A stretch of DNA of 64,000 nt from Octopus vulgaris (Eukaryota), in contig OX597814.1 of assembly GCA_951406725.2 (NCBI GenBank), positions 92,814,001 through 92,878,000 on the forward strand, given 5' to 3'. Below the pieces are notes generated by a model. The model was not told the DNA's origin, did no database searches, and saw nothing but the letters and a program-made list of their open reading frames with translations. A program made the position numbers and the translations under genes. This document shows, one piece after another, positions 6,697 through 59,000 of the stretch. How positions within the stretch are numbered: the stretch's first letter is position 1; the number at the start of each line of letters is the position of its first letter.

Positions 6697-9600
6697 GTGA
6701 GTATTTTTATTTCATGTTTTTCAAAAATTTTTTCTCTGCGAATAATGGAAGTGTGTGTTGCTGGCAATCACTAGACAGATGTCTCTGCTCTTCTGATTTT
6801 GTCAGCTGGATTCTGTTTGTCACCCAAACATATTCGATATATCTATCTGTCTTTCTTTCATCACCTCCATATTTCACATACCAGAACTCAATTTTCCCAA
6901 TCCTTTCTATCAAAATTTGCATTTCTCTGAGGCTGTCTCCTATATATATGTGTACGTATGTATGTATATATGGGCATATATGCATATACATATGCATATT
7001 CAATTGATTCATTGAACTTTAAGGACCAGATCACAAAGTGGTGGTGTCATTATTTATTATATGTATATTTGTGTGGGTGTGTGTATACATGTATGTATGT
7101 ATATATTTATGTCTGTATGCATATAGCACAGGAATATCACTTGAAAAGATATGAATACCATTCAAGATGTTTTGTCTGCAACACCAATAACTGGTAATTA
7201 TTTAGTAAAGGACCAAAATTAAATTTGTTAGAGAATTTTGATATTCTACTCACCTGTACTTTTATAAATGTATCGTCTAATACATTTTTATGTAATTTTT
7301 ATCCTAGGTGGACTAATTCAGCATATTGTGGATGACAGTTGGCGTGTACAGGGCTTTCGAAACCTGCAGGCTATTACATTTGGTGCCTGTAAACATGCTT
7401 TGGAAGTGGATCTTGGTTTTCTAATTATTACCTGTGAAGCAAAGTATGAAACCTTTCTTTCTTTACTTTTTTTTTATTCACTTTTCTTAATTTTCTTATT
7501 GATTAAATGAATTGACTACTTTTTACCTCTTGAGATTATGTACAGGTTTACCTGATTTTGCATGCCATGAACTATAAATTTTTCTAGCTGTTGTGTTTAG
7601 CAGCCCCAGTTCTCTGAGTGACACTAGAGCAGCCCTAGAAACTTCCATCCACATTTGATCAACTTGTCGTAAGTTGAAAGTGGAACATCTACATAGGCAC
7701 TCTGACACTCAAAATATAACAGCTAAATTTTCCTCAAACTTATTATTTTCTTTAGTGTACATGGACCACATTATAGACAGAAATTCTTTAATGAATTATG
7801 TAATTCTAGTCTTAGGACAGTATCTTCAACAACAAAGATGAAATGGCCTCAGTAAGAATGCCAATCATATGGCTCATTGAATCCTTGCTACTTTAACCTC
7901 CATGCCATAGGTTTACTGTAATAGAACTAATTAATGTTGTTTTATGTGAATGTTTAATGGGATGGGTTATTTTTATATGTTGGAGAAATATGTTTTACAA
8001 CTTGGTGCTTTCTTTTTGTTAGCCAACAGTGAAGTAGAATTAAAATTTGTTTTTATCAGACATAACATTTTAAGTTATGTACCTTCCTCATTAGCTTAAT
8101 TTAATGATTCTTGATGGTATGGTTTGAACTCTTAACCATGTAGTCAGTAGTTTAGTATCTTAACCCCCTGTACACAAATGAAATTACTAGTGTTACATAA
8201 AGATATATAACATCTTGTAATTCATCACAGATACTCATTTGCAACAGCTATAGGATGGACTTTTGAAATGTTATATCTACTGATGATAGAAAGGACTGGC
8301 TGTGTGTTTCACTCAACCTGCTAAAAATAGTAGCTAAAGCTCTGCAAGTCATGTTCTACCATAAAGAACACACTGATGAATATGATCAAAAGTATTCTAG
8401 CCAAATAGGTTTGGCTGGAATACTTTTGATCATAGCTCTACTTGATCAAGGTTTACTTTCAGAAATTTGAAGGAAATGAAAGCTGTTGTTTACTTAGGCA
8501 CAGATGATCATTTGTTTCAGACCCCTAGGAAACCAGCCCTTGTGCTCAGTAGCCACATCTATGTCCTCTACCACTGAGACTGATGAGCCAATGAGGGGGA
8601 CATTGCATAATGACTTGACCTGCTAGAAGTAGCAGCCAAATCTTTAAATCACACCCTACAGCTTAAGAACAGGACACCTTCTATAATATAATCCTAGATA
8701 AAATTGGATAGTTGTTAAAGGATAGCTTTTTATCATAGGCCTGCTCAGCTAGGGCTGACATGGAGAGCTAAAAAGCAACAACTATTGGAATTGATTCATT
8801 GAACTTTAAGGACCAGATCACAAAGTGGTGGAACATTATTAATTATGTAATATACTGTTAAGATATTTTATTTCTTACATTTTTTTCCCTACATATTTTC
8901 TTCAATGTTTTAATAACTTTTTCTCCTTCTTTCTAGACTAACCGATCTATGTGTGCAGCCATCTCTAACAAAGGACAACCTCTTCTCTGCTCTCACTATG
9001 GCTGAAGTTACATTCCCAAATTTCAAGTCTTTAACTTTAGGTTTTGTAGACTCTTTCCCTGAACCAGGTAAGCTGACAATACTATTATTCAACCATTCTA
9101 TGAGGCTAGAAATAGAAATAACAGAAAAAATATGACATATGTATACTCTTTAGAATGCCTTCATTTCTATTTCTTTGTAATTTTAATTTTAGATGTAAAC
9201 TATATTTACTTTTTATTTTTTAGGTAAATGGACTGCTGAAGAACTTCTGACAGAAGGTCTGGTTGAAGTACAAGAGAATCCAGCTATGATCACAGATATT
9301 GGGATGAAGGCAGTGGGACGTTGTTTTCCATCTGTTAGCCATATGGAAATCTATAATTGTCCTCACCTTCATTACCCAACTTCTTGGTTTCATCCAGGTG
9401 ATAATATATTTTTTTAATTTAGTTAAGAGGTACAGTGGCTATAAGTTTAAAAGTGTTAGGTTATTAATTAGAATATATTTTGAATTTATTGAACCTTATT
9501 AAATCATCTTATCTATCTTCACAAAAATTGTAATTGTTTTGAAACCAACTAAAATTATCTTAGAATTTAATTTAGTGAATCATATTGTTTTTCAGTTCAA

Positions 9601-12600
9601 CAATAATGTAGAATTAAAACTGAATTTCTTTTTTTATTCAATGATTTTTATTTCTCATAATTTAGCAAAGAAGATTTTATATTATTGTAGTGTCACAATT
9701 TTTCACATTCAGTTTCAAAGATATTTTAAAGCACAGTGAATCTAACATTTGCATTCAGGTATAATGTGAGATAAGCATATTTGAAATCAGTGTACTGAGT
9801 TATCATAAAGCTCACCTTAACATGATACTGTACAAACTTGAGTCCATGTCAAACTCTTGTGTTCTAAAGTAGTTGGCTGCTTTTCAGATTTCCAGGTTCA
9901 TTTCATTTAAATGACCAATGTCCTTTAAAAGACTATGAACATCAACACAATTTCATTTTCACTTTATAACTATTTTCAATTTTTTTTATATGTAATCTAA
10001 GATCTTTAGTGAAATTTGGTTTTATTGTCATGTTATGCAAATATTATGAAAGGAAGTGGAAAAGATTCAAAGTTGTGTCATGTGGCGTAATAGATGGTTG
10101 CCACGATAGACAAATGATGTAAGATGTGAGATGATGTAGTTGTGTTGGATTCAGGCTATGTATAATGAATATACATCTGTGAATGATTAGCAGAACTTTA
10201 TTTCACTGCACAAATAATTTTCATGTTGATCATGAGTTAGAAATTGCAACAACAAAGTTTACACACTGGAAAGAATATTATTTAGCTCTTACAAATAGTT
10301 GATGAATAAGGCTCTGTAGTTAAGCTGCCAAGACAGGAGAAAATATACCATGCTGGATTCAGGTCATTGAACCATTGCAGCATGTCTAGGTTGAGTAAGA
10401 GCCATGATAAGGACTGTTAAAAGCAGCTAAAGCAGTGTGATTAGCTTAGCTGTGACTGACCACAAACTGAAGAGGTGAGATGTGTGAAAGTGAATTGGCA
10501 GGTCTCTGCGCGGATATACCTGATAAGAGTGGAGGTGCATTATCGCCCAGATGTGCTGTTTATAGGCCTTGTTAAGGAACATTTTATAGACCTCTAGAAA
10601 GATGCTTCACATGATGTCTGGGTGCTGGCTGGTTTATAACTCAGAGCTGATCACATGAAAGGCTGTTACTAAGCCGTGATTTTAACTTGGCAGTTTGTCG
10701 ACTCGGTTTCAAATCTTACTACAGTTGAATAACAAATATCAAAAACAACAATTGAAGCATATGAACTGAATTGTAATATTCATAGTTGCTCAACATATTC
10801 ATATGTATACTTATTAATAGTGCAAAGCAATGTTCAGCTGATTTTCTGTCATTGGTTACCTGTATTATACAAAGTCTGAATATTTATGCGTCTTAGTATA
10901 TATAAAACCCATCCTAACATGGTTGTGTAACCTGAATTATCAAACTAAGTACAAAAGCTCGTCAGTACTGCACAGATGTGTCTCTTAAGTAAAAACCTAA
11001 AAGTGTTCTATGCTAATGAGCAGAGACCAACTGAAAGCTTCATGACAACATAAAGAAACAACAAGCTCAGTTCACTGGACACCATATGAAAAGAAAGAAA
11101 AAACCTTGAGGACTTGGTGACAACCAAGAAACTCGAAGGAAGAAGAAATCAGAGAAGACAGAGAAAGAAATACTTTATGACTGATAATTAATGGTTTTAC
11201 CATCTGGTTTCAAAGAGGACCAACCCAATAATATACTAAATTGAGTGTGGGACAGGAGGGCGTGGAAGTCCATGATCATCCATGCCAGTTGGCATAACAT
11301 ATGAAGATGATTATTGATTATAAAAACTCAAGTGCTTCCCATAAACTTTGTTATAGATAGCTTTTAATTAGATGTACTTTTGCATATATTAGTTGATGTC
11401 TTTTGAATTTGTGTAAAAATGCAATTTTTTTTCCCTCCTTTTACTTTTATCAGATACCAATTGCTGGTCAAACTTGAAAAATTTACATCTCAGAAGATGC
11501 CATGCAATACGGCTTGAAGATTTAAATGCATTTATACCAATGCTTCCATCTTTGTTGTCCCTACATTTAGAATTTATGCTGAGAGAACCACCGAAAGGCT
11601 GTGCAAGGTGAGTGTGTTTTTTTTGTACTCATTTTTATCTCCCTGAAATTCCCTGAAATATGTTTCACTTTTTGCTCTTCCCTACAGCAGAATGGTTTAA
11701 AGGATTGTTATAAAATAAAACATAATTTAGTTGGCCAAAAAATGCTTCGTGTATAAATTTGAACAGGTCTAGAATTAATTTTTTTTTTAGTGTCAATGTA
11801 TAATTATAACATTGACAGGATCTCATTCAAATCTGAAGGAAGAGTGTCATCATATTAGCAATAAATGTGCATAAATTAAGTAACTACTAAAGTAACATTT
11901 AGTTATGTCACTTAACCCTTTAGTATTCAAATTACTCTGCCAAATGTAATACTTATTCATTCACTTCGTTTTGAACTAATCATGCATATTAACTTGTAGC
12001 TTTGAGATTTCTATGATGTGGTTGCTTATTTTTAGATGTGAGAGGTCAGATCTGGCTAGTCTGAACATAAAACAAGTAGGGTATTTCAGTCTGATGTAGG
12101 CAGTTTAAATACTAAAAGGTTAAGGTGTTTTTTTGTTTGTTTCTTTTAACAGAGTTGGCCTTAGTGCCGGGACTGGGCTTGGAGTTTCATCTGCTCTTGT
12201 ACAGAATAATGGAGCCGATGCCCATAACCAACCAAATGCTGCAGGTGCTGGGGCTGCAAATAATCAAGGGGACCAACCTCCAGCTCAAGCTGCTCCTGTG
12301 CCTCCAGCAGCAGCGGCCGCAGCAGCAGCAGCAGCAGCACCTGCAGAAGCAGAACCTCAACACAACAATGCAGAGGCTGATGCAGCAGTAGCAGCAGCAG
12401 CAGCATACCCTCCTCCTCCTCCTCCAATGTCACCGCCTCCATTGCCACCTTCACCCCCACCGTTGCCACCTTCACCGGAACAACCTCCACCACCCCTACC
12501 ACCACCTCCTGACCAACTTGCACCATTGGCAACATCAGCACAACCATTGTCACCACCGCTATTGCCTGAACACTCAACTTCACAGTCACCACTCCCGCTC

Positions 12601-15600
12601 TCTCGAGATTCTTCCCCCCATCAATCACCTGTACATTGTTCGTCACATCCCATCTCCACTTCTCAGTGTTGTACACCTTCAACCAGTCACAACTGTGTAG
12701 CCCCATCTCAGCAGGATTGCGCCTCCAATGTTGCCGGTAGCAGTTCTGGTTCAGTTCCAAGACAGAGTGGGAAGAAAAATAGTCTTCTACGTAGTAAAGA
12801 AAATTCTAGCAGCAGTCAGAAATCATGTGAAATCAATGATAAGAAAAGTCAAGACGGTGAGTCATCTTCTGAAGATGGGCAGAGAATTGAACCTGGGGAC
12901 AGCAGTTCAAACAGACATGTGCCTAACCAACTGGCTATAGGTAATAATCACAGTTATCTGACAGAGCAGAACAACTTGTACTCAGCTGTTAAGGCTGGTC
13001 CCTCAGGACTTAATCATACTTGTTGTTGTACTTCTGTCATTGCAAACAAACGGGTCAACCATCATTTTGGTAAGCATTTCATTTTTGTTATTTTGTTGTT
13101 TTTTTTTGTTTTTTGTTTTTTTCTTCTTTTTGTTTAAGAAAGCCCTTTCTGAAACCATATTTCTTACTTGAATATCTCCTGCTTTTGCATTTCTAGAATT
13201 CTTTTAATTCAAGAATTTAAAACATTACTAACTTTATTTATTTATTGAGTCTCACAGAGACGATAGGTGGTGACTAAGACTTTTGGTGGTTTGCTATGCT
13301 TGAGAAGACATTTTGAGCTAAGTGAAATCGTATTCATGGCTAGTGGCATGTAAATGGCACTTATGACATGTAAACAGTACCTGTACTGGTGACACATAAA
13401 AGGCATCCAGTACACTCTGTGGAGAGGTTGGCTTTATGAAGGGCACCCAACCATAGAAACCAAACCATGGTTTGACTATAACTGGTAAGCTGGAGAGCTC
13501 TCTGGCTACCAGTTCTAGTCAAACCATCTAACCTATGCCACCATAGGAAACGGATACTAAATGATGATGATATTAGATGCAGGCATGGTTGTGCCATTAA
13601 GAAGTTTGATTCAAAACCATGTGCTTTTAGATTCCATTCATTGCTTGGCACCTTGAGCAAGTAACTTCCATTATAGCTTTGGGCTATTTGCTGCTGAGTG
13701 TGCTGTGAATGATAAAATTCACCATAAGCAACAACAACTCTAAGACAGATCAGCCTCGTATCTGGAGAAAAAAAATCTTTCATTTGTTTAATGTTATAGA
13801 TACTAGAGCTGAGCACTAACATAATGGATCATTATGATTTTAGATTACCTGTTCTTTTCCCTTATTCTTTAACATTTCTCATCACACAATTGTTTTAGTG
13901 TAGCTTAATTGTGGTAAATATGCATTCAATCTTTACTAAAGTCATTTCATTGTATTAATGAACAGAATACTTACATTATCCTGCTTATCTCAAATCATCT
14001 CATATACAGTTTATTTGATGGTTGAGTGGTTAGCAGTAGGAAGACATAGTAGTGTGTAAATTTATACTAAAGAAAAACCGAATCCTCTTAAAACTTTTTA
14101 TGAAAGCATTAGAGCAAAAACAGGTTAAAGCTTTTATTGAATTCATGATCTCTACCCATACAAAACTGTTTTTTTTTCTATGTTGTCTGAATAGTGGTTT
14201 TCAACAACAGTTCAAGACCACAAAGTGTGAAGAGAATTTTATTTATTTCTTGCACTTGTGTGTATTTTATCAATTTGTTTGGGTGAAAGGCGGTGAGATA
14301 TGAACTCAGACTAAACAGACAGAGCTCTAAATACAACAAAACTTCTAATTTGGTACTTCACTGCCTCTTGCATTTTGGTATTTGTAATGTTGTCTAAATA
14401 CTAAATTTTATTAACTGCTTTAAAATATGTTTTGTATGTATTTTATTATGCAATATAAATTTTATCTGAGAATATTTTGTATATTGACATATTTAAAATG
14501 AAAAAAAAAATGATTATTTAAAAAACAGGTACTCCTAAAAGAATAGAGGCTAGCTAAATACTGTTGCCTCTTTCTCTGGTGTAATTCATCCTCATTCTCT
14601 AGCGTAACACTACCGATGTCTCTCACATAAGATACTTTTGTCTCTACCATAAAACTTTTTCTCTCTCTCTCTCTTGCATAACACTGCCTCTTTCTCTAGT
14701 ATAATACTGCCTCTCTTTCTCACAAACTGTTGCCTCTATCTCTGATATGACACTACTTTCTCTCTTGCAAAGCCCTGCCCCTGTCTCTGACATCACATTT
14801 CTCTGTATATATAACACTGATGTATTTATTTTCTTCATAAAAAAAAAGGATATTATTGAAACAGTTTTGTTGGTAAATTCCACTAGTCAAACGATTATTT
14901 AATTAGAATTTTTGAACCTCATTTCAGGTCATAAAAACACCAAAGTGACAAAGTGTTCTGCAGAGAAGACTAGTAAGCATACCACGAAATCTGACCTGCA
15001 CTCCAAAGGAGCATACACCTGCTACAATCCTTCAGTTCGTGTTATCTCCACAGATACATCATCTGCTCAGCCCTCAACAAGTGGCTTGAATATTTGCAAG
15101 TCTGATTTTGTAAACAACGCTAGCATTCCATCTGTTGCAAATGGATCCTCAGCCTCAAAACAATGCACCCACAGTGGTGGCAGCAGCAGCAGCAGTAGTA
15201 ATAGTAGTAGTAGTAGCAAGGGGAAAGATGGAATAGGTGGTCATTGTAGTAGTAGTAGTAGTAGTAGTAGTAATGAAAACAATAGCATTGGTGATGATTG
15301 TTGTAGTACTAGTCGTAGTAATGTTCGAAATTGTTGTAATAATGTAAGTGATGTTAGGAGTCACAACAGTGCCAATCAGTGGTTACAAGAGAAACACAAG
15401 AAAAACTTAATGAATATGGCTCAGAGGAAAAGGATGAGGGAGCTGGACGATTGCTGTCCTTCATCAGCAGGAGGAGAAACGGAAGGAGAATGTGCCAAGT
15501 CGCGTTCATCTAACAAAGCCTTTTCAGAAAAATTGTCAGCCTCCTCTGCAATTTCTGGAGGAGAGTGCAGCTCAAGCACTACCACCAGCCACATGCACAG

Positions 15601-18600
15601 GTGTAACGAATCCTCATCCGGTAAGAAATATCTTCACAAGTTCCTTTACAAAAAGGACAAACATTCGGCAAATGCAAAATCCTCTGAAAGTTGTTCTCCT
15701 GTCTCTGAACCTCAGCCTTCTACATCATCATCGACATCTTCAGACACGGTGTTCGATGTGGCGCCACCAACCTGTGATAAATCAGCTGATGTCCCGCCAG
15801 CAATAGGGGATAATATGCAATCTTCTGCTGATACCGATGCCTTAGTCAGCGGAAACCATAGCGACAGTAGTAAGTGCTGTACATTCAATGAAAACAACCT
15901 GCCTTCAAGTTCTTGCATCTCTCACTCTGCTGAAGCACACTTGGAAGTAAAATGTGAGGGAAATAGAATTCCGACCGTGTCAACAATGTCACCGAAAGGG
16001 AAGTGCCTTCGGAGTGGTTTCAGAACAGTCCTGAAGAGCAGTGCCAAGATAACAACTAAGTCCAAAAAAGGCTGTGATAGTTCACCCTTACCATTGCTTT
16101 CATCTTCATTACCTTCCTCTTCCTCCTCTACTTCTTCCTCATCATCATCACCATCATCGTCATCATCATCGTCGTCATCATTTTCTGGCAGTGGTCCTGT
16201 CAAAATGAACCAGTCTTGCCAAGCTGTCAGTGAAGAAATTCGAGAGACTACAAAGAAAGCAAAAGAAAATGAGGATGCCACTAAGTCAGCCTCACATTCA
16301 GCTGAGAATGCCAGTGGAAGTGAGAGATCATCATCATCAGCAGCAGCAGCAACTAATAGCAACAATTCTCAAAATACCGGTAGTAGCAGCAGAAGCAGTA
16401 GTTCTGTTCGTGCTGCATCATCATCGTCGTCGTCGTCATCCACTTCAAATTCAGTGCAGTCGGGATGGACTGCTAGATCAGGTCCGAAGTACAGCTATAC
16501 GCGTAAGTCAGTCAAACGTAAAATGAACACCTGTGACCAAGCTACCAGCACCAGTGATCCTGTACAGGAAGAAGATCATATTCAGGTGAGCCATCACTAA
16601 ATACAAATGGTTGTTGTTTAGCTCCGTGTGTTTCCTGGTTGAGCAGGTATATGACTAGATATTCTACTCATGACCCTTCCATCTTTTATTCTGACATAGT
16701 ACATCCCAGCCCACTTCATTTGATGTCTCCATCACCATTTGAAATGTGATTTGGTTGCTAGTTCTGGTTGGAGGAATGACCACCTCGCATTGACATGATC
16801 ATTAGATATGACCCATTTGTGCCTAGTAACATGGTAGAGAAGAAAACATGGGGAATTTCATAAGCCATTTGATCTGTCGAAGGATGCATTACTTAAGTCT
16901 AGGTCTTTATATAATACTAGCACTATGACCCTGCAACGCCGGGTCATAGTGCTAGTGCATGCATATACAGCTGCGTGCGTGCACACATACACGCGAGTAC
17001 TGTCCAAATCTCCGACCAATCACATACAGCTAGCTGGTATTCAATTGGCGTAATTTTGATTGGGTTTTGGATAGAAAATTCACAAAAAAGTCTCTTCTAT
17101 TGATTTTTTTAATGGCTTTGTGGGGGTGACTGGGGAAATGTAAAGATGTGCACGACTTTGAATGACCAAAGAAAGTGCGAGCTCTCTAACTGAAAAATTG
17201 TGGATTTGTATAAAGGACACACATGCAGACATTTTGCCATTTATATATAGAGAGATATTTAAAACAAGACAACATGGTGTGGCCCTGCTTTTTCTAAGGT
17301 TACACTGAATTCAGTGTTATTAGTTAACGAAGCACTTGTCAGTTTTGTTGTATTGATACAACTGATAGCTACAAGATATTCTTATTGTGTAGTACCTATT
17401 TAAAGTTGGAAAGACTGGAATTTTAAACTTCAACAGTGTTGGATACAAACCAGTGCTAAAAACAGGATATGATTTACCAACTTCTCAGTAGAAAATTCAG
17501 TTTTTTTGGACCTAGTTATTTACTTAGCATAAGGAAACATTAGTCTACTGCTCAACTTTAACCTTAAGTAAATGTGAAAGAAATCTCTTCCTAAGATAAT
17601 TCAGTACCCTGTCAGAGACAGACTTTCATCCAGAAGTTGTAATCACTAAAACCAAACAAGTTGTTATCAGTAAAACAATATTGATACATTTGATAAGAAC
17701 TTACCACTTACAAATTGAGAGTCTACCACTATATTAGTGTTTTACCTTTACCTTCGATAGTACCAATCATTCTAACCATTTCAACAAAGCATTTTCTATA
17801 TTGTTGATACATACCCTGCAAGGTGAAAACTGGGAGAGTTCTAATTTCAGTTCTCACTGGCAGAGTTTGCAGTTTGTTTGTGAAAGGGTAGTAATAGGTT
17901 ATTGATAAAATATGGTAAATGACTGAAACAAGTAAAATAAAAGAAAAAGAATAAAAACAATTTATTGGGGAAAGAGTTTATTAACCATATCCTTCACATT
18001 TCACACAAAAAAGGACTTGTGTCTGAGAAAGAAAATCATATAATATATCTTTGCCATTATATTAGTCTCTTTTTCATAGCTTGTAAAATATAAAATGGTG
18101 CTCTCAAAATGTGATATGATTGCTTTTATTTTCTGATATTTTTCCATAGGTACTTGGAGTTCAGTCCAAGACTCTGACAACCCTGACATTGCATATGGTT
18201 GGAATAACAAATCTCTGCCTTCTTGACTGTCCAAATCTGGCTACCGTCTCATGTAAGTTTAGAGCTAAATTACACTTATCTTGTATACATTAATACTGGT
18301 GTATATAAAAGAATGGTGTTTGAATGGTGTTCTCACCTTGTTATTGTCTTAACTCTGTAGCATTTAAACTGGCCAGATTCAGCATCTCACACCTACCCTA
18401 CAATGTCAATTTTAAAATATACAATTACATCATTGAAATCTCAAAGCTATGAGATAATACATGATCAATTATATGAAATGTGAATATATAGGCATTACAT
18501 GTGACAGTAATCTGAACACTAAAGAGTTAATGTTTTAAAATTGTGTCCTCTGCATATTGGTGTTTCAAATTTTGGCACAAGGCCAGCAATTAAGTCAATT

Positions 18601-29056: not shown

Positions 29057-30270
29057 TCATCATCATCATCATCATTTAGCGTCCGTTTTCCATGCTAGCA
29101 TGGGTTGGACGGTTCAACTGGGGTCTGGGGAGCCCGAAGGCTGCACCAGGCCAGTCAGATCTGGCAGTGTTTCTACAGCTGGATGCCCTTCCTAACGCCA
29201 ACCACTCCGAGAGTGTAGTGGGTGATTTTATGTGCCACCGACACAGGTGCCAGACGAGGCTGGCGAACGGCCACGCTCGGATGGTGTTTTTATGTGCCAC
29301 CGACACAGGTGCCAGACGAGGCTGGCAGACGGCCACGCTCGGATGGTGTTTTTATGTGCCACCGACACAGGTGCCAGATGAGGCTGGCGGACGGCCACGA
29401 TCGGATGGTGTTTGTTACGTCCCCAAAGCACGGAGGCCAGTCTATGCGGTACTGGCTACGCCCACGTTCGGATGATTTTCTTGTGTGCCACCGGCACTGG
29501 TACCACCAAGATACAAATTCCATTGATGTTCATCTATTTTGATTTGTTTTGATTTGATTTGATTTTCACTTGCCTCAACAGGTCTTCACAAGTGTCACAA
29601 GAAGGAAGGTATGCACAGGTGGACTGACTACGTCCCAGGTAGGGGCCACGGGTTATGGCCTGACTAGTCTTGCCGGGTCTTCGGATGGTGTTTTTATGTG
29701 CCACCGACACAGGTGCCAGATGAGGCTGGCGAACGGCCACGATCGGATGGTGTTTGTTGCGTGCCCACAGCACGGAGGCCAGTCGATGCGGTACTGGCTA
29801 CGGCCACGTTCGGATGGTTTTCTTGTGTGCCACCGGCACTGGTACCACAAAGATACAAATTCCATTGATGTTCATCTATTTTGATTTGATTTGATTTGAT
29901 TTTCACTTGCCTCAACAGGTCTTCACAGGTCTTCACAAGTGTCACAAGAAGGAAGGAAGGTATGCACAGGTGGACTGACTACGTCCCAAGTAGGGGCCAC
30001 GGGTTATGGCCTGACTAGTCTTGCCGGGTCTTCGGTTGGTGTTTTTATGTGCCACCGACACAGGTGCCAGATGAGGCTGGCGGACGGCCACGATCGGATG
30101 GTGTTTGTTATGTGCCCACATCACAGAGGCCAGTCGATGCGGTACTGGCTACGGCCACGTTCGGATGGTTTTCTTGTGTGCCACCGGTACTGGTACCACA
30201 AAGATACAAATTCCATTGATGTTCATCTATTTTGATTTGGTTTGATTTGATTTGATTTGATTTTGATTTT
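29055..30270 (-). repeat. (CAT)n-tailed retroposon with nested tandem amplification (~60-bp and ~350-bp units)
   Basis: ~60-bp unit GATGGTGTTTTTATGTGCCACCGACACAGGTGCCAGA(C/T)GAGGCTGGC...GGCCACG x3 at ~29222-29405; larger unit containing (TTTGA)n repeated ~2.6 times; same terminal family at 19278, 40790-41130, 43830-44080, 44430, 45860, 46670, 58030. Confidence 0.8.
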
Positions 30271-45198: not shown

Positions 45199-48003
45199 GG
45201 TGGTTATGGTGGTGGTGGTGGTGGTGGTAATGATGGTGGTAGTGGTGGTGGCATGACAACGATAATAACAGCAACAATAACAACAACAACAATAATAGTC
45301 TTTCTAATTTTCAGTACAGGTCTTTGATCCAATAATAACTTTCTCGTTTCCTGCCAATGAGAGGGGCCTTGGAAAGTGGTTTGGACACTGCATTTCTACC
45401 ACTGATTAAGGCATCATCCCAAGAACCAATGGGTGGCTTCAGATGAAGCTTTCAGGGATGTTTGGCCTTATGCCTAGCATAAACTGATTAGATTTTGGGA
45501 TTGATCCAGTACTGGGCAAGGATTCTGGATTATTTTTCCATTTTTTTACTTAATTTTTGTGAGTAGCCAGGTTCATTTTTAGCATTTTCATTTGTGAGAG
45601 CAGTCGAGTTTATTTCAGATTTTCTCATTTTAAAAATCATCTCCGGCTACTCGTTGGTGTTGCCTAGGCAGAGGCTTGTGCTCTCTGAGTGCTCTTGTTA
45701 CTTCTAATTTTAGTTTATTTGTCTAAGTTCTTTTGTGGCACATTCTGTGACCTCTTCAAAAACTTTCTGTCCCATATGCCTTATTTTGTCCTGTATATCC
45801 ATTTTGTCTTTCTGACAGATAGACAAAATGGAAATTGGCAAATGATGACCATCCCCATCATCATCCTCATCATCATCGTTTAAAGTCCGCTTTCCATGCT
45901 AGCATGAGTTGGACGGTTTGACTGAGGCTGGCAAACCAGATGGCTGCACCAGGCTTCAGTCTTGATCTGGCAGAGTTTCTGCAGCTGGATGCCCTTCCTA
46001 ATGCCAACCACTCCAAGAGTGTATTGGGTGCTTTTATGTGCCACTGGCATGGGCGCCAGTCAGGCGGTACTGGCAATGACCTCACTCGAATCTTTTTACA
46101 CATGCCAATGGCACAGGTGCCATGTGTAAAAAGATTTGAGCGAGGTTGTTGCCAGTACTGCCTGTTTCAACACACCATTTCATTTCAAGAAACTTGCAAA
46201 ACAAATATGTAAACATAGGAAGAGAGAATGATATGATATAATTTCTTGAGTTTCCAAATGAACAGGTTTTAATAACTTTCAGCAGTAAAGAAATAAAGGT
46301 GATGAGGTCAAGGCCTGATAATTCTACCATTCAATGACTTAATTCATAGAAAGAAAATGTAGCTTATCTTACAAATAAGCTGCATCAGAACCAGTGAGTA
46401 GAATAAACAATGCTGTCCCTTTTTCTGCTTTGGCAACTTTGTAGAATTTCTTGATTTCTGTCAATAAAATATAAATATGAGAAATGGAAATATATGGAAA
46501 TATCACTTAAATATTGATATATTTTGGGATGGTCGTTTTTTTTTTTTTGCCAAATAAACACATGCACTAACTATTCAGTCTTCACTCATTTATTAAAAGA
46601 AAAAAATGAATGTCCTGAAATATAACAATATCTCTTTGAATACACAGATTCATCATCACCATCATCATCATCACCATCGTCATTTAACGTCTGTTTTTCA
46701 TGCTGGCATGGGTTGGACGGTTTGAATGAAAACTGGCAAGTTGGGGAGCTGTACCAGGTTCCAGTCTGATTTGGCATGGTTTCTACAGCTAGATACTCTT
46801 CCAAATGCCAACCACTCCAAGAGTTTAGTGGGTGCATTTTATGTGCTACAGGCACAGGTGCCAGTTACATAACACTGGCACCGGCCATGATTACGGTCTC
46901 ACTTGGCTTGACAGGTCTTCTCAAGCACAGCATATCTCCCAATATGTAAAAAGGGTGCTTTTTACATACCAGTTACTAGACACTGGCACTGGCCATGACT
47001 ATGAACACACTCGGCTTGATGGGTCTTCTCAAGCATGGCATATTGCCAAAGGTCTCAGTCACTTGTCATTACGTACATGAGGCCCAACATTGAAAGATCA
47101 TGCTTCACCACCTTGTCCCATATCTTTCTGAGTCTACCGCTTTCACAGGTTCTGTCCATTGTTCAGCACTTCTTCACACAGCTGTCCTTGTCTATACGCA
47201 TCATACGACCATATCAATGCAGTCATCTCTCTTGTGCACCACATCTGATGCCTCTTATACGATGGGTTTCTTTCAGTTTCCATCTACCAAATCTACTCTC
47301 AAGGCTTTGGTCGGCCTGAGGCTATAGTAGAAGACATTTGCCCAAGGTGCCAAGCAACCAAGCAGTGGGACTGAATCTGAAACTATGTAGTTGGGAAGCA
47401 AGCTGCTTACCACACAGCCATGCCTGCGCCTATATATATATATATATATATATATATACTACAAAATTAGAGAATGGAGAAACATACTTAAATCAGTAAA
47501 ACATCAACTATCCGATGATATTCAATCCATACTTTAATACACCATTACATATGAGTAAAGGCAATATATAAAATGAAATGAGATACACAGTAATAGTAAA
47601 AGTAAAAAGATAAAGAGATATAAGTAAAAAATTTCAAATATAATATGCAAATAAATCAAAACTGACAGCTGTTTCGGCAGTGAGGACAGTCATACCTCAT
47701 TTAACCTATAAGCCATAAAGGCAGGTATAAATGAGGCATTAACAAGGATGCCCCACGGCCTCTTCAGAGAATTAAATTAAATTTGTTATAATAGTGAAAA
47801 ATATTATATAATCATATACATATAAATATAAAAATATAAAAATGTAAAATATAAAAACTTATACATCATAATGCTACACTTATATAATATAATACACATT
47901 TGTACAAAAAGGAAGGTAAACAGAACAAAATAAAACAAAATATATAACAGTGTATATATTAATATTAATAAGTACCGATATTATACATATTTGGCTAATA
48001 GTT

Positions 48004-48038
<35 letters not shown>

Positions 48039-48125
48039 CTAACACATATGGAGATGAAAAATAATAATTAAATCCGTGGTACAGTTCATAAAATTCTAAA
48101 GCTATAAAAGTTAATAAAAATTACT

Positions 48126-48179
<54 letters not shown>

Positions 48180-51100
48180 TAATAATAATAAAAAATACTA
48201 AAAATAGATACAGTTAAGTTAGCACCAAGTCCATCCTTTCAAGATCGAAATAACTATGAGTTAAGAAATGCTGACCACTAGGTAAAGAAAATTTAGATTA
48301 ATTCGATTGGCTATTGGTTTGAAATTTAAATCACAAAAGAAAATTATACGGTTGGTTAGTCAAGGAACGCCAATATTCACACACGCATCTACAGATCAAA
48401 CGCACATACACACATAGTTATATGTATATACATACACTTATACACATACACAATCACAAGCAACAACTAGCACTTAGATAAACAAAAAAGGGAAGCAACT
48501 ATGCTAACATTTAGTCCTTCAAAATTACAACTGAGCCTCAATAACAAAAAAAGAACCATCCATGCATTCTATAAAATATTTAATTTAGATATAAATATAT
48601 TTTTAAATATCAGTATGTTACTAATTCAGATAATTATTTCATGGGTAACTTAAAATTTATAACACCGGTTTGTTACAGAGTAAACATACGGTTGTTAGGT
48701 TTATCGTAAGTTTGTTATGATTTTAAGTACGCTAAATTATAAAATATAAAAAAATATATATTAATTTAAATATTATAAATAAGTCACTTATTAACTTAAT
48801 AAATATAGTGCCATAATATACCAGTTTAGGCATTAAAGAATAGAAGAGGAAGTATTAATGTAAACGCTTATGAGAACATCACAGAAATTTTAAATAAATT
48901 TTATATTATAAAGACTTAAGATGAAAAGAGATGAAATAAATAAAAAGGAATAAATACGAAGGAATAAATACGGTTATATACATAATTATAAGTACAAACT
49001 AGTATATATGTATTCATATATTATTAAAATTAAATAAAAATAAATGATAGATATGTATGTATAAAACTACACCAGTATAAGTAAATAAGTAAAAAATAAA
49101 TAGGTAACAAATTAGATGACTTGATATGTATGTAAACATCTACACTTAAATAGGCAAATAAATAAATGAATAGAAGACTAGATGCAAAGATTGATAATAT
49201 TACAATAAAATGGGAAATAAATAAAAATAAATAAAGTGAATATATATATTTTATATTGTTGAAAGTAAATATGTATGGAAGGATAGTTTAAAGTACAGAT
49301 CCAGAGGACTATAGATATAAACTAAATATATGAGGCTGGTAATAATTATAAAGCAAAATGCATGTAAATGAGAAAATGAAAAAAAATGAAAAAGGTTTAT
49401 CAGTGAATAGCATAAGATACAAATTAAGGTGAGTACAAAAAGACCAAATATATAATAAAAACCTTCCAAATAAACACATACAAGAAACCTATAATCTCAA
49501 CCTAAACCCACCAAACTCACAAAAGGCTCTCATATATTACATATTATACAATATCATTACATTATCTAGAGCTAGGTATCTAACCAAGATATACATATAT
49601 ACTATGCAATATACTATGCAATATTGGAAAACTTCAAAAATCACACATTACAAGGCAAATACCAAAATGAATATGTTATTTTATGTCATATTGCATTTCT
49701 CTTAAAAAAACAAACAAAAACCCACATACAAAAACCAAGAAACCAATAATACTAGACACATCCATTAATTATTATACAAATGTAGCTATAAAAATTATAA
49801 AATTATGAAATTTATAAATTGTATACTTTAGAATTATAGAAGACCACAGGTATATTTAGTTAAAGAAGGGAATTAAAAAAATTAATAATAGTGGAAGTGC
49901 TAAGTTCTATTTGAATCTAGAAAAGGTGAACGGTAGCCTATGAATACAAAAGAAGTTTTTCTCATTAATGTTGTTAATAATTTGCCGACCCGCTTTAATA
50001 ATGAAGAAAATTTCATTAATACATAGAGAGCATTTTTTATTTTTTCCATTATACACAGGTGCTGAAGTTAGTATTTTCCAGTTTAATCTAAAATCTAAGT
50101 TCTTACTTTTAAGTTCCCAAATGTATGCACTTAGCCCTGTAGAGTACATTCTATTTTTATTCCTAAAAGTATATCTGTGATAATTCCATCTTTGTTTTAT
50201 GCTATTCATAGTTGCCCCGATATACACCCTACTACTCAATTGTGTATCTACAGTGCATTGGTAAACTACCTCCTTCCTGAGGCATTGATTACCAAATACA
50301 CATTTATTTTTATTTCTGAAATTACAAAGATTAACAGAATGAGGAAATCTAAGATTGGACACCACCCCTATACTACTATTCACATTATAAGTGTTACAAT
50401 TGTTATCATCATCCAAACCCAAAATCAACGAATGAGTTAATTTCACATTATCGGCTATATTCCTATCACTAGTACTAGTATTGGTAGTAGTAGTATGATC
50501 TATTACATTTATATTATCTCTGACAGGTATGGTGCACTCATTATTAGTAAGGAGGTTGTTCCCATTTGTTCCAAGAAAATTTCTATTCCTATTATTAATG
50601 AAGAGGGGCAAGTTTTCCTGGTCTAAATTCAATTTTCTATCCTTATAGAAGTGATCCAGTTTCTTGTTATTAAAAGAGGAGATAATGGTGGCTAGATTAT
50701 GAGTAATGCTATATCCCACTCTAACAGTACCGTTGTTAATTAAAGGACTAAATTTATTCCTATCCTTACCGAAATGCCTAAAAATAATATTATGCAAAGC
50801 TCTCACTATGTTTGTTTTAATCTGCATTGCATACGGGATAATCAACCAAAGAGTATCCTTATCAGAATTAGGATTGCCTATAGAATTAATGTTATTTGTA
50901 AAAATCCTATTCGTAGACCAACTCATAGGATTACTATTCTTACCACTGTTATTATTATATCTATCTATATCAATATTACCATGGTTATTGCGCAAGTAAA
51001 CTTTACCAATATCATGTCTACCATAAGTTTTAATTCGTATATTATTATTAATATTACTACTATTACCCGTATGCTTAGATCTATTTGAGCTACCGTTCAC

Positions 51101-53605
51101 CTTTCCAAGGTTAACGTCACTTCTACATTTATTATAGGTGTTATCATATATTCTATTTTTACTATTCTTATGTATATTGTTGATTATCCTAAATCTATTT
51201 GTGTTGTTCCTGATAGTTCTACCTCCATTAGGGGGTTCCCCTTAGGTATAAACCAAATCTTACTTTTATATCCTGCCTTAAGTAATGCTGCATTGTATCT
51301 ATCACAGTGTTTGTTAAAAATTTCCTCGTTTGAGGATAAACTAGAAATTCTCTGACTAATGCTACGCACTAGTGCATTTTTAATTTGAGGGGGTGATTAC
51401 TAGAACGGTTAATGTATATTAGGTTAGAATTAGGTTTAATATAGGGTTCATGTAAACCATTAGTAATGTTACAATTAACATCTAAATAATTAGCAGAATA
51501 ATTTTCACTTTCAATGATAATGGATAGGCCGAAGCTTTTAAAAAATTTATTTATTCTTTTTTTCAGAAGATCTAATCTCCTATTTGATGTATTCCTAACA
51601 CAAAATAAGGCGTCATCCCTGTATAATCCACCTTTTAATTCAGGGAATTCCCTACTAAAGTTATCTAATAGATACATCCCAACTAGATCAGTCACCTCCG
51701 CTGAGTCCGGCGATCCCATTGTGATATCGAACAAGTTGGGTGTGTCCTTTCTAGCCCAAAGTTTATTATCAAACTCTATTAAAGTTTTCCTGGCTGTTAG
51801 TATAACCTTAATCTCCCCCATACTTAATTTAGTGTGTTTTCTAGCAAAAATTAAGGACTTATTTAATATAATAGGGTTAATTGAAGTGTAATAATTCTGT
51901 ATATCGAATTGTATAAATTTATTTCTATTATAGCTAAAGTTGTTACTGTCACAGACCTTAATGGCAGAAAACCAATCCAAAGCACCCTGAGTATTCTTCC
52001 AAAGGTTTAGTTTGATTTTATTGCGGATGGTGGGTAGATATTTATCTAGAATGAGTTTACTTAGTCTGCCTAAGTCAGATTTAGTGGGGCAAATTAATCT
52101 GACCTGTGTGTTTCCAAGAAAATTCTCTTTATGATCCTTTAGTGTAATTCTCGGTCTGGATGGGGTGTAGGGTTCCGTTTTTTCTTCTAGGTAGTAGTCA
52201 AATATGATTTCTCTGATCTCCAGGTTCAGTTTTCTAAGTGTACTAGAAGGTACTACTTTGTATTTCTTGGTTATTTCCTTGTGTAGAAGATCATGATATG
52301 CAGTAATGTCAATGTTGTAGATGTTGTTGGTTTTGTCAGAATGTGTTAGAATGCCGCTCTTACCTTTGAGAGTTCTAATTAAGTCTTTCAATTCTCTTTG
52401 GTGCGGGTTATATCTTAAAGGATGATTTCTAAATTTTATGTTTTTTACAGTCTCCCATAATTCTTGTTCAAAATTGTCTAGATGTATATTTGGTGGAGGA
52501 GACTTTCTAGATTTAAATGTAGTGCCTGTTAGTTTTAATATTTCTTCATAGGTGCTTCCAATTCCATTACGGATCGTTTCCCCAGTGTGTTGTTGGTTTA
52601 TTTTATTATTAAAGTTCTCATGGTGGAAAATCCTCCATCTGATCCTATGGATGAATTCATTCATTCTATAAATTAGTTCTTTAGTGTAATGGTCTTTGGT
52701 AGGGATAGGTACATCCTTCATTGATGAATTGATCAGTATTTTCTCCATTCTTCTAGCAGTAATGATCAAAGGAACAAATATACTACACTAGGGTGTATTC
52801 ACATGCACTATTAATATTTAAATCAATAAATGGATGCTTATATTACACCAGTATGAGCAATTCAGGTTCCTCAAAAGATAAATTTAGGTTATAAAATGAG
52901 ATAGGGGTTGAAAATTCAACCCACCATGGGATAATATATATCCAATATACTGCTAGATAGGTACCCAACAAAATTAATACATAGATGTTAAAAATTGTCA
53001 AGCAATCAGTTCATCTATTGTATTAAATGGGTAAAGGTAATAATATTACCGTAAATTAATACTACAAAATTAGAGAATGGAGAAACATACTTAAATCAGT
53101 AAAACATCAACTATCCGATGATATTCAATCCATACTTTAATACACCATTACATATGAGTAAAGGCAATATATAAAATGAAATGAGATACACAGTAATAGT
53201 AAAAGTAAAAAGATAAAGAGATATAAGTAAAAAATTTCAAATATAATATGCAAATAAATCAAAACTGACAGCTGTTTCGGCAGTGAGGACAGTCATACCT
53301 CATTTAACCTATAAGCCATAAAGGCAGGTATAAATGAGGCATTAACAAGGATGCCCCACGGCCTCTTCAGAGAATTAAATTAAATTTGTTATAATAGTGA
53401 AAAATATTATATAATCATATACATATAAATATAAAAATATAAAAATGTAAAATATAAAAACTTATACATCATAATGCTACACTTATATAATATAATACAC
53501 ATTTGTACAAAAAGGAAGGTAAACAGAACAAAATAAAACAAAATATATAACAGTGTATATATTAATATTAATAAGTACCGATATTATACATATTTGGCTA
53601 ATAGT

Positions 53606-53637
<32 letters not shown>

Positions 53638-53728
53638 GGGGCTAACACATATGGAGATGAAAAATAATAATTAAATCCGTGGTACAGTTCATAAAATTCT
53701 AAAGCTATAAAAGTTAATAAAAATTACT

Positions 53729-53775
<47 letters not shown>

Positions 53776-56029
53776 TAATAATAATAAAAAATACTAAAAA
53801 TAGATACAGTTAAGTTAGCACCAAGTCCATCCTTTCAAGATCGAAATAACTATGAGTTAAGAAATGCTGACCACTAGGTAAAGAAAATTTAGATTAATTC
53901 GATTGGCTATTGGTTTGAAATTTAAATCACAAAAGAAAATTATACGGTTGGTTAGTCAAGGAACGCCAATATTCACACACGCATCTACAGATCAAACGCA
54001 CATACACACATAGTTATATGTATATACATACACTTATACACATACACAATCACAAGCAACAACTAGCACTTAGATAAACAAAAAAGGGAAGCAACTATGC
54101 TAACATTTAGTCCTTCAAAATTACAACTGAGCCTCAATAACAAAAAAAGAACCATCCATGCATTCTATAAAATATTTAATTTAGATATAAATATATTTTT
54201 AAATATCAGTATGTTACTAATTCAGATAATTATTTCATGGGTAACTTAAAATTTATAACACCGGTTTGTTACAGAGTAAACATACGGTTGTTAGGTTTAT
54301 CGTAAGTTTGTTATGATTTTAAGTACGCTAAATTATAAAATATAAAAAAATATATATTAATTTAAATATTATAAATAAGTCACTTATTAACTTAATAAAT
54401 ATAGTGCCATAATATACCAGTTTAGGCATTAAAGAATAGAAGAGGAAGTATTAATGTAAACGCTTATGAGAACATCACAGAAATTTTAAATAAATTTTAT
54501 ATTATAAAGACTTAAGATGAAAAGAGATGAAATAAATAAAAAGGAATAAATACGAAGGAATAAATACGGTTATATACATAATTATAAGTACAAACTAGTA
54601 TATATGTATTCATATATTATTAAAATTAAATAAAAATAAATGATAGATATGTATGTATAAAACTACACCAGTATAAGTAAATAAGTAAAAAATAAATAGG
54701 TAACAAATTAGATGACTTGATATGTATGTAAACATCTACACTTAAATAGGCAAATAAATAAATGAATAGAAGACTAGATGCAAAGATTGATAATATTACA
54801 ATAAAATGGGAAATAAATAAAAATAAATAAAGTGAATATATATATTTTATATTGTTGAAAGTAAATATGTATGGAAGGATAGTTTAAAGTACAGATCCAG
54901 AGGACTATAGATATAAACTAAATATATGAGGCTGGTAATAATTATAAAGCAAAATGCATGTAAATGAGAAAATGAAAAAAAATGAAAAAGGTTTATCAGT
55001 GAATATATATATATAAAATGAGATAGGGGTTGAAAATTCAACCCACCATGGGATAACATATATCCAATATACTGCTAGAGAGGTACCCAACAAGACTAAT
55101 ACATAAATGTTCAAAATTGCCATGCAATTAGTTCATTTACTGTATTATGTGGGAAAAGGTAAAAATATTACCGTAAATTAATACTACAAAATTAGAAAAT
55201 GGAGAAACATACTTAAATCAATCAAACATCAACCAACAGATGATACCCAATCAATACTTTATTACACCATTACATAACAGTAAAGGCATTATACAAAATA
55301 TATTGTAAATATAATTAGACAAGGAAATAGAAATATAAAATATAAAATATAATATGTAATTATATCATATCTGACAGCTGTTTCAGCAGTAAGGGCAAGC
55401 ATGCGTCATTTAACCTATAAGCCATATAAGGCAGGTATAAATGAGACATTAACAAGGATGCCCCACGGCCTCTTCAGAGAATTTAATTTATTATAAGTGT
55501 GAAAAAAATTTTTTTTATATACATATAAATATAAAAATATAAAATATAAAAACGTGTGCATAGACACCCATAATACTACACATATATATATATACTCATT
55601 AATACAATAATACAAAATAAACAAAAACAAAATAAAACAAAATATATATTAATAAACACAGTTATTCTACATATTGGGCTAATATATTTATATGTATATA
55701 AAAAAATTTTTTTTCACACTTATAATAAATTAAATTCTCTGAAGAGGCCATGGGGCATCCTTGTTAATGTCTCATTTATACCTGCCTTATATGGCTTATA
55801 GGTTAAATGACGCATGCTTGCCCTTACTGCCGAAACAGCTGTCAGATATGATATAATTACATATTATATTTTATATTTTATATTTCTATTTCCTTGTCTA
55901 ATTATATTTACAATATATTTTGTATAATGCCTTTACTGTTATGTAATGGTGTAATAAAGTATTGATTGGGTATCATCTGTTGGTTGATGTTTGATTGATT
56001 TAAGTATGTTTCTCCATTTTCTAATTTTG

Positions 56030-56074
<45 letters not shown>

Positions 56075-59000
56075 AAAACACATGCATGCATGCATGCAAA
56101 CACACACACGCAATACACACATTCATATGCATCCAGCCATAGAAAAACTGCCTAAATAAATTCTGTCTGACCCATGCAATCATGGAATATTAGACATTAA
56201 AACAGTATTGATAATGATGATTTAAAAGAAGTTTATAACATGTAAGTTTATTGATTCCAGGAATAAATGACTTTGTATGCTGTAAACTTGGCTCTATTTG
56301 CAGAACCTGGCAAAGATGTGAAGAACATCCACATGTTAAGAAATGGTCAAAACTCAAATACCTAATGGTTAATAAAGAAAATGTGAAAGTACTAACAGAG
56401 ATCACAAAATCTGTTTGCCATAAAGTAACAAGTCAATACAGGACTTATATTCAGCCCTAAGCAATAGAAGACTGAGAACAAGAACTTCAAAATTTGCTAA
56501 CTGTACCAAAGTAATTAGCATCAAGGATATTCATATAGTGAATCTATTGTTCAGGTGGCTTGTTAGATAAAGATTATGTTATCAAAGTGACCTAAGTAGT
56601 GATGGGGTTGGCTGCAATAACTGTTTAGAAGATAGAATAAGGAAACCATATAAGATGTCTAGTGAGTTGCTATCTTTATTTGTAATAAATTGTAGACTGT
56701 GTGGTTATTTCTTCTTCTTCCTCAAGTGATTACAACCAAGATGCATTTTATAATACTGCATCAGGAATCCCTGTCTCCCATTGGCTTTAGTAGGTTCTCA
56801 ATTTCAAGTTGTATGTTTCTACTAAAACATTTTAAGCCAAATGAAACCCAATTAAGTTGGACGGAAAATTTTTGGTTATCAAGAGTTATAACTTCAAAAT
56901 TATTTTGGGACTATGATAAATTTATATTGTATTTTCTGGTATACAAGTCAGTGTAGTATATAGTGTAAACATGTAGTGTAAACATTCAAACATTGTCATT
57001 ATCTTTCCAATTTCTGCTGTATTTCATATAGAATTTGATGTGTATGACTACCTTACTTTTTTAGTTGTAAATTCTAGTCTGATGAATTCAACTTGTATGT
57101 TAGAAAATATGGTATCCATTCATAGAATTCATGTTGTTTTATAAAATTCATATTCTCTTTTGTATAATACGTAATTATGAAAAAGAAATATTTTATAACA
57201 TCTTACCAGTGCTTTGTTCAGGAAACAATCCAAGGATACAGATGGATGTTAGGTTGATTGCACTTTGAAATGATCCATCTAAAATATTATTGATGTCTTC
57301 TTTAGTTGCTTGGATTACATCTTCCAGAGAATGACTGAAATTTAAATAAGTGGATATATATATATTTTAAAAATTGAATTTCAGCAGTGTGTGTATATGT
57401 GTGCATATTTATATGTATATGTGTACAAGACTTTTTTTGACTTCTCAGCTTCAGTTATCTTCCCAAAGCTTTTTTAGAAGTAGCAAGTTTCATGAATAGT
57501 TGAAAACATGTGAAATTTCTATACACAAAAGAAGGCAAATATGTCCATGCTCATATATATATCATCATCATCAATCATCATCATCATCAACATTTAATGT
57601 CTGTTTTCCATGCTGGCATGGGTTGGATGGCTTGACAGAAACTACCAGTTCATCCATTATATTCTCTTTTCTTTTCCTCTATCACTATAAATGGAGTGCT
57701 ATTGCCTTTATTGTTAATATCTTCTAACCATGATTTATGACCCCCGCCAAAAAAAATTTTAAACAAAAGAAACAATTTCACTGCATTAAAAAATAGGGCA
57801 ATTTGTTTAAAGGAAATGGCTTGCTTGTTGCCGATCCTGGCAAAGTAAGTGAATCCTACAACAAACTATTGGTTAATTATATGATATTTGTCTTTCACTG
57901 GAAGCTGAAGTGATGTGATTAGAAGTTTGAGTAAGTCTAAAAAGAAAGAAATAGATGGTGCAGACAGTAATTTGCAATTGTGAAGAGAAAAAATTTTTGT
58001 TGGGAAGAGGAAATAAATAGTATAAATAAGGTACTACACTCTCGGAGTGGTTGGCGTTAGGAAGGGCATCCAGCTGTAGAAACACTGCCAGATCAGACTG
58101 GGCCTGGCGCAGCCTTCTGGCTTCCCAGACCCCAGTTGAACCGTCCAATCCATGCTAGCATGGAAAACGGACGTTAAATGATGATGATGATGATGATGAA
58201 GGTCTCCTGTCCTGGAGGCAAACAAATGTAGTTTGCGGAGGGATATCATATTTATTAAAACAAAGTACAATGATTATAAACTTAAATACATGACACTAAA
58301 ATACTAAAGCTTATTAATCACAAAGACAATATTTTGATAAAGTTAGATTCAGCCGTTGGCTGTATCAAGGTACATAACTCTTCTTGGGCAAGGTACACAA
58401 CTCTTCTTATCTAGCTGTCTGATGTGTTTCATCCCTACTGCACAACCGAGTGCATGGGATTAGAAATTGCATCCATTTATACAATCATTTGATCTAGCGC
58501 CATGAAAAATGTTTACATTTTGAGAAATATAAATACATTGTTTAACATGGAAAAAAAATAGATATAAAACAACAAAATTACAGGTATAAAAATTTCATGG
58601 CACTTTTGGCATTTAGAACTCCAGTATAATTAATTATCAAGTCTTGACCATCTTTGCCAGGTGGTTTTCCAAGCAGTTTGATTGTTGGACTGTGCGTAAA
58701 GTTGTATCGATTGCACTCCTCATCCAGGTGTAAGCAGTCGACCATGGCACTAGAAAGATTGGGGTAGTTTTCACCAAACTGAGACTGCCATTGTTCCAGA
58801 AGACGTACAAATGCTATACCAACCGGGTCATCTGTCAAAATATACATAAGATTTATATGAGATTGATGAGTTCCATATATCATATTGAATTACAGTATGC
58901 ATACACAGAAGATGAAATATATCTTGAGCAAACCTGTACATCCATTTTTCAGTTATGTGTTACATGTGCGTTTGACTCCTTTCTTAATTTATCTATTATA

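Follow-up and report, generated by a model that had tools for sequence, protein, structure and literature searches.

Long stem II arms in predicted hammerhead ribozymes of an octopod clade of Penelope-like elements

Introduction

The role of hammerhead ribozymes in Penelope-like elements (PLEs) is stated as unresolved in previous studies (PMC4209133, PMC8557442). The closest described elements belong to the Hydra clade, which Craig et al. 2021 marked by a DKT motif, a CxCX5C linker, and CxxC and CxH motifs, and whose published listing contains one family from Octopus bimaculoides (PMC8557442). In Anolis, the PLE hammerhead was reported to cleave only with the element's protein, and insertion in vitro did not need cleavage (PMC11167929). 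Here we describe four hammerhead motifs in a 64,000-nt stretch of Octopus vulgaris DNA (GenBank assembly GCA_951406725.2, contig OX597814.1, positions 92,814,001 to 92,878,000; hereafter the window, at its full length), which are associated with a PLE of apparent Hydra type and carry an unusually long stem II. A literature search of openly readable text turned up no animal PLE hammerhead described with a long stem II. The clade-wide long arm appears to be new here, and the hammerhead itself reads as a variant of the dimer-type PLE hammerhead.

Hammerhead motifs in the window

Three of the motifs lie on the minus strand (copy 1, 47661..47770; copy 2, 53264..53373; copy 3, 55370..55480) and one on the plus strand (copy 4, 55736..55846). 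Each consists of CUGAAGA, a long insert, GAAAC, the loop AGCU, and GUC, with a gap between the core halves of 85 nt in copies 1 and 2 and 86 nt in copies 3 and 4. The coordinates, core letters, and helices given for these four motifs in the original prediction, made from the sequence of the window, all matched our analysis, and the helices it named within a stem II of about 85 nt agree with the predicted fold. Copy 1, of the young subfamily A, is located in the 3' pseudo-long terminal repeat (pLTR), with its stem II insert at 47676-47760 and a predicted cut after 47664. Copy 2, in the upstream pLTR, has the same sequence (insert 53279-53363, predicted cut after 53267), and its cut lies about 520 nt before the first in-frame ATG (52748). 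Copy 3 belongs to a separate insertion of the older subfamily B (insert 55385-55470) and has a G.U as the first stem II pair, and copy 4 is the inverted arm of the same insertion (insert 55746-55831); their predicted cuts fall after 55373 on the minus strand and after 55843 on the plus strand. The C3 positions are 47767, 53370, and 55477 (minus strand) and 55739 (plus strand). Stem I across the cut site, which the original prediction did not mention, is short, with 2 bp in copies 1 and 2 and 3 bp in the other two copies.

The type I core (CUGANGA...GAAA...NUH, with A15.1-U16.1) is present in 4/4 copies, and by sequence the motifs qualify as type I hammerheads, for which cleavage is predicted. 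A core-spanning pattern had at least 1377 matches in the genome, its reversed control had none, and the four motifs are not chance occurrences. The stem II of copy 1 folds with a z score of -4.2 (0 of 200 shuffles equally good), and folding is weaker in copies 3 and 4 (z -2.3 and -1.7, with 5 and 13 shuffles equally good, respectively). Among the genomic copies aligned below, the A-U and C-G pairs of stem III were invariant in 43/43 distinct rows, these columns being partly fixed by the search patterns, and the stem II closing pair G10.1-C11.1 was G-C at 74 of 76 sites, with G.U in copy 3. At gathering score, Rfam returned nothing for the window, and in 47400-56100 it returned no hammerhead family at E values up to 10; the long insert is the likely reason for this miss.

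Selection on stem II

The window by itself provides little covariation evidence because its four motifs come from only two insertions: copies 1 and 2 show no differences, and only two bases distinguish copy 3 from copy 4. The single C-C mismatch that the original prediction placed between the two subfamilies exists (pair 26-66) but is private to the insertion of copies 3 and 4 (1 of 76 sites) and is no subfamily trait. A C.U mismatch at the fourth stem II pair, absent from that prediction, was found at 43 of 76 sites.

The genome-wide alignment comprised 98 of 102 fetched copies at 76 insertion sites, drawn from the genome matches (at least 1377). In paired columns, alleles found at three or more sites kept the pair in 12 cases and broke it in 2, whereas rarer alleles kept it in 8 and broke it in 13 (Fisher p 0.007). 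When C.U was re-polarised to count as a break and two recurrent G-to-A changes were left out, the counts were 11/1 versus 8/13 (p 0.004). The proposal that most substitutions keep the pairing thus holds across the aligned copies for changes at the subfamily level (12 of 14), while private changes were mostly breaks (13 of 21). Both sides of pairs 8-78, 10-76, and 25-67 had changed in many copies, and a pair counter scored 97% of cells as paired and found 8 double-change pairs, compared with 3.5 in shuffles (0 of 500 shuffles as high).

Indels and a sister family point in the same direction. Among seven subfamily representatives, stem II contained one 1-nt indel, and 150 nt of flank contained as many as 92 gap columns. 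The sister family L236, whose reverse transcriptase (RT) is 81-84% identical to that of the window family, has a 100-nt arm that folds with a z score of -5.7. Between L236 and subfamily D0, 71 of 86 stem II bases were common (83%), and the flanks were 33% and 51% identical, which is at the level of shuffles. The RT-coding DNA of L236 and the window family was 78% identical, below the 83% of stem II. Taken together, these sequence comparisons indicate that the hairpin extension is kept by selection.

An intron within stem II that would leave a short arm was considered and rejected on inspection of the alignment, where the candidate acceptor AG was lost at 15 of 76 sites and the donors were weak when judged by the splice consensus.

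Distribution of the long arm

Forty RT loci were fetched after protein searches of the genome, and a quick tree was built from 15 of them with 31 database relatives. Thirteen of the 15 loci grouped in one clade (SH-aLRT 100), together with two Argonauta proteins and three further proteins. A hammerhead with an insert of 50-100 nt was found at 11 of these 13 loci, and the other two (L305 and L308) gave no intact call. In ten clade families the insert lengths were 85, 100, 56, 55, 56, 50, 60, 57, 60, and 51 nt, and the arm folded clearly better than shuffles in seven and weakly in three. Stem I was 3-6 bp in the other long-arm families, and in the other clade families the distal arm lay within about 35-225 nt of the TA boundary.

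A family with a 10-nt arm was placed outside the long-arm clade in the same tree. This second Hydra-type family (L229-L232), with many uninterrupted 727-aa frames and a minimal stem II of 10 nt, offers a natural control within this genome. A hammerhead was called in 49 of 77 metagenomic relatives, all of which are closest to the 10-nt family. Every one of the 49 had a stem II of 10-25 nt, although the detector allowed up to about 190 nt. The frames of the long-arm clade are 778-1090 aa, compared with 727 aa in the 10-nt family, and the clade has Asn-rich protein insertions and long AT-rich untranslated parts. This distribution marks the long arm as a derived feature of one octopod clade, and plants offer a scattered precedent. 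The view of the motif as an atypical hammerhead is borne out, with 85-86 nt compared to the short stems of relatives, and the trait reaches the whole clade, beyond what the window could reveal. The word 'giant', used of this stem II in the original prediction, is apt for its length but only in relative terms, since the sister family has 100 nt and a spike-moss PLE is tabulated with 53 nt.

Two further observations concern hammerheads of the same genome. A core variant, U4C (CCGAAGA), was found in one whole family (5/5 loci: L248, L297, L298, L299, and L304) and in the sister family L236; this variant was reported to reduce activity in vitro (PMC3088659). In addition, old decayed hammerhead families (L111-L130, L159-L188) share the same stem III and have inserts of 82-122 nt, with 28 of 80 inserts in one cluster and genome counts of 35, 235, 88, and 103 in four length classes. 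Consensus folding of these families failed because the copies are decayed. A search for an RT link found Hydra-type remnants at 3 of 40 loci (in sense, no more than 7 kb upstream) and none for the 93-122-nt cluster.

The host element

An RT frame with a C-terminal GIY-YIG-type endonuclease, of Hydra type, is located at 49907..52787 on the minus strand and is broken by two frameshifts, near 51350-51390 and 51230-51240. The frame sits between the tandem hammerhead copies 1 and 2, which flank it 5603 nt apart, and the Penelope association originally proposed is thereby supported. One 5.6-kb element unit (period 5603 bp) spans 47456..53058 on the minus strand. In it, about 2.1 kb of AT-rich sequence separates the stop codon from the hammerhead, and the 3' end of the unit lies on (TA)n at 47432-47457, 207 nt beyond the cut. 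The upstream tandem copy (pLTR; 53059..55005, minus strand) is 5'-truncated and 99.6% identical to 47456-49409. A 'tail' of about 170 nt (52890..53058, minus strand) lies between the two 3' end points seen in genomic copies of the family, at +206-210 and +374-389 from the cut site, and a GC-rich hairpin lies directly before its distal end. The older subfamily-B insertion (55012..56042) consists of a 3' fragment on the minus strand and a 360-bp inverted arm (55174-55533 / 55683-56042, 98%), with TA repeats at both bounds. The young element is inserted in a short TA run (55002-55012) at the 3' end of this insertion, so that one TA target holds two insertions.

Natural copies elsewhere in the genome (L233, L234) have uninterrupted frames of 955-962 aa and the same ribozyme about 2.1 kb past the stop. 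Their proteins contain the DKT and RWR motifs, the CxCX5C linker, CxxC, and CxH; in the window copy, F stands at the second C. At the position of the RWK motif, the window family has RWR and the sister family L236 has RWK. By eye, the RT motifs look like published Hydra sequences. Pfam searches returned no family for either window frame, and a search of these frames against sequences of solved structures gave nothing useful. By its motifs, the host element is best described as a Hydra-type PLE, the tree consisting of genome families and database relatives rather than published Hydra references.

The 3' ends of 57 of 58 young-type copies lie on TA repeats, 168-389 nt after the cut, with 29 at +200-219 and 26 at +360-399. 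Neighbour pairs among the 102 copies were inverted in 20 cases and on the same strand in 3. A database protein named from Octopus sinensis showed 98% identity over one third of the query. The window family is young, as all 40 of its scored genome matches were 100% identical and the core-spanning pattern matched the genome at least 1377 times. In many copies of the window family, the open frame has a common length of 519 or 534 aa, compared with 955-962 uninterrupted aa in others, reflecting either the spread of one shared break or a recurrent slip at a single site. The retrotransposon proteins P0003 and P0005 carry the source name 'GATA zinc finger domain-containing protein 14-like', probably due to their Asn-rich insertions.

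Other features of the window include open frames without a Pfam match at 6057-7007 (316 aa), 12124-13137 (337 aa), and 14903-16600 (565 aa), a unit of about 345 bp in three tandem copies at 29259-30251, and, at 5636-5975, a fold-back of 167 bp around a 6-nt spacer.

A possible working model and its alternatives

The predicted monomer fold, which the original prediction had missed, is an inactive rod in which the stem III palindrome supplies the CAG that pairs with the core CUG. With core tertiary energy outside the model, the active monomer is 8.7 and 6.7 kcal/mol worse than the rod, and a double hammerhead lies within 2.5 kcal/mol of two rods. A dimer formed via the 8-nt palindrome is 8.5 kcal/mol better than two rods. 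Among the dimer-type traits, a palindromic loop over an unstable stem III is present in both pLTRs, but the short stem II (3-8 bp) is replaced by one of about 31 bp, whose hairpin in young copies has a predicted energy of -38 to -41 kcal/mol. Inserted copies extend 206-389 nt beyond the cut site, which means that the RNA used for integration is uncut at the 3' ribozyme. In the window family, the distal arm lies less than 400 nt from the RT start sites.

We propose that the monomer would rest as an inactive rod and that palindrome pairing of two copies would free the core, with cutting predicted to be weak and confined to dimers. By analogy with Poseidon of Anolis, the element's protein would bind near the 3' end, upon which the ribozyme would fold; cutting would be occasional, trimming tandem transcripts to the 5603-nt unit, and each insertion would not depend on it. 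The long arm would be the handle by which the element's own RT-endonuclease binds. We hold this account as a whole tentatively, at somewhat below even likelihood, and the specific assignment of the arm as a binding site for the element's protein, which is drawn from analogy, is slightly more tentative still. Recognition by the RT, a role raised in the original prediction, fits the position of the arm and the literature, and it ranks ahead of tertiary contacts within the ribozyme, tolerated growth, stability of the 3' end, and small-RNA or ADAR functions, in this order. A bolder version is doubtful: a hammerhead turned scaffold, in which a family-specific stem II RNA domain would be bound by a telomerase-like RT-endonuclease, coupling template choice with ribozyme activation, much as a telomerase RNA stem-loop or the R2 3' untranslated region recruits its own RT.

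Several points weigh against this account and the evidence behind it. The paired-column counts are not independent events, and some columns were fixed by the search patterns; the shuffles of the pair counter can be beaten by related sequences without structure; and the sister-family comparison is a single locus (L236) that module exchange may explain. The commonest subfamily carries both the C.U mismatch in stem II (43 of 76 sites) and a 2-bp stem I, and because of these two traits its ribozyme may be nearly inactive. An extended stem I was at shuffle level in six of seven subfamilies, with D0 alone better (4 of 200 shuffles). In the weakly folding families, 36 of 300 (L294), 29 of 300 (L247), and 8-12 of 200 (L243) shuffles were as good as the arm, and a clear common sequence motif was not found among the arms of different families. 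Of the metagenomic loci, 28 of 77 had no first call, and a relaxed scan of these gave one 19-nt call and two 69-nt candidates; the latter, located inside the RT frame, were taken as chance. 5' junctions fell exactly at the cut site in 6 of 7 hits examined, all of them short 3' pieces that stop short of the open reading frame, but at the two control sites there was 1 such junction among 3 hits and 3-4 among the 30 examined from a total of 35, a difference that is not significant (p ~0.12). The stem-loop at which RT starts in Anolis lies apart from the hammerhead. Finally, cleavage, dimer formation, and protein binding are putative.

The strongest alternative, which we consider unlikely, is that the arm acts inside the ribozyme and has no protein reader, with tertiary contacts, either of a stem II bulge on the tail after stem I or through arm-arm packing in the dimer, making up for weak pairing in stems I and III. 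In its favour, the 9-nt 5' internal loop hardly varies despite being partly unpaired, a pairing of 4-5 nt between this loop and the tail directly after stem I is possible in seven of eight representatives, and stem I-stem II pseudoknots are frequent in natural hammerheads (PMC3088659). However, the loop-tail matches are short, G.U-rich, and without a shuffle control, and they shrink to 3 nt in the young subfamily. The loop also sits 12 bp away from the core, and hammerhead tertiary contacts are not known to lie so far out. Moreover, a weak stem I and a long arm are not coupled, given the stem I of 3-6 bp in the other long-arm families.

It is less probable again that the arm has no second function, a permissive stem II having grown in an expansion-prone clade with pairing kept only against misfolding of the core. 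The long AT-rich untranslated parts and Asn-rich insertions of the clade would agree with such growth, as would arms of 50-100 nt, and up to 122 nt in the old decayed families, with unrelated sequences. However, neutral deletions of the distal arm would then be expected, yet none was seen at the subfamily level although the flanks are rich in indels; all 11 resolved clade members have at least 50 nt; and stem II is closer to the sister family (83%) than RT-coding DNA is (78%).

Marginally less probable than tolerated growth is a role in protecting or exporting the RNA, where the arm would act as a stability, export, or translation element for host proteins at a new 3' end without poly(A). The sequence geometry places the arm 12 nt from the new 3' end after the cut, the hairpin of young copies is stable (-38 to -41 kcal/mol), and hammerhead cleavage promotes translation in fungal viruses (PMC13725137). 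Nevertheless, in the viruses it is the product downstream of the cut that is concerned, and the corresponding product here would lack stem II. Genomic copies, furthermore, derive from RNA uncut at the 3' ribozyme. The last alternative, a small-RNA precursor or an ADAR-tuned switch, draws on an arm length and a 16-bp near-perfect segment that resemble a pre-microRNA, and on a single subfamily-level A-to-G change (column 65). Both parts of this suggestion, made in the original prediction, are left very improbable and without support. Among 9 substitutions in the core and stem II at 35 young sites, in a sample biased towards perfect matches, none was A-to-G, and none of four arm motifs of 11-12 letters occurred in four PMC9699675 supplements (which contain little text and may not list microRNAs). 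In other families the arm is shorter and irregular, with no relation to this one, and as a duplex substrate stem II is far inferior to the 360-bp inverted repeat that surrounds copies 3 and 4.

Implications and comparison with known systems

Among these readings, that of a protein-bound arm lends itself to a direct test, since recently active families with 50-100-nt arms occur beside an active family with a 10-nt arm in one genome, and exchanging or deleting their arms would show whether the element's protein recognizes the ribozyme module or the module only cuts RNA. Long-arm motifs escape Rfam and would escape descriptors with a short stem II, and cephalopod hammerhead counts are therefore probably too low.

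Compared with the described Hydra clade PLEs (PMC8557442), the element shares the C-terminal endonuclease, the DKT motif, the CxCX5C linker, CxxC, and CxH near the end, as well as TA-repeat targets and a sense-strand hammerhead near the 3' end with a palindromic stem III. It differs in the hammerhead, which in that clade has a stem II of 3-7 bp with a 3-10-nt loop, compared with 85-86 nt here and 50-100 nt across the octopod clade. It also differs in a unit of 5.6 kb instead of less than 3 kb, RWR instead of RWK, and a tail of about 170 nt instead of 30-40 nt, with a protein of 955-962 aa in intact copies. The minimal hammerheads of metazoan PLEs (PMC4209133) are likewise type I, occur in both pLTRs, and have a palindromic loop III, a dimer mode, low activity, and a short stem I (2 bp in Drosophila virilis). 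However, a helix II described there as 'larger than usual' has 6-8 bp, whereas stem II here has about 31 bp in four segments.

The nearest precedent for a long stem II is the spike-moss PLE-X1 (PMC8557442, file S2), with 9 bp and a 35-nt loop (53 nt) marked as non-canonical. These are single tabulated cases from an endonuclease-lacking plant lineage, and the accessible part of that source does not describe covariation, a clade pattern, or a function. Poseidon of Anolis carolinensis (PMC11167929) resembles the octopus element in having two RT start sites that define a tail downstream of the hammerhead, in the use of uncut RNA as template, and in an AT-rich target. It belongs to another clade, however, its open reading frame begins within its stem II, and no long arm is described in the accessible part of that work.

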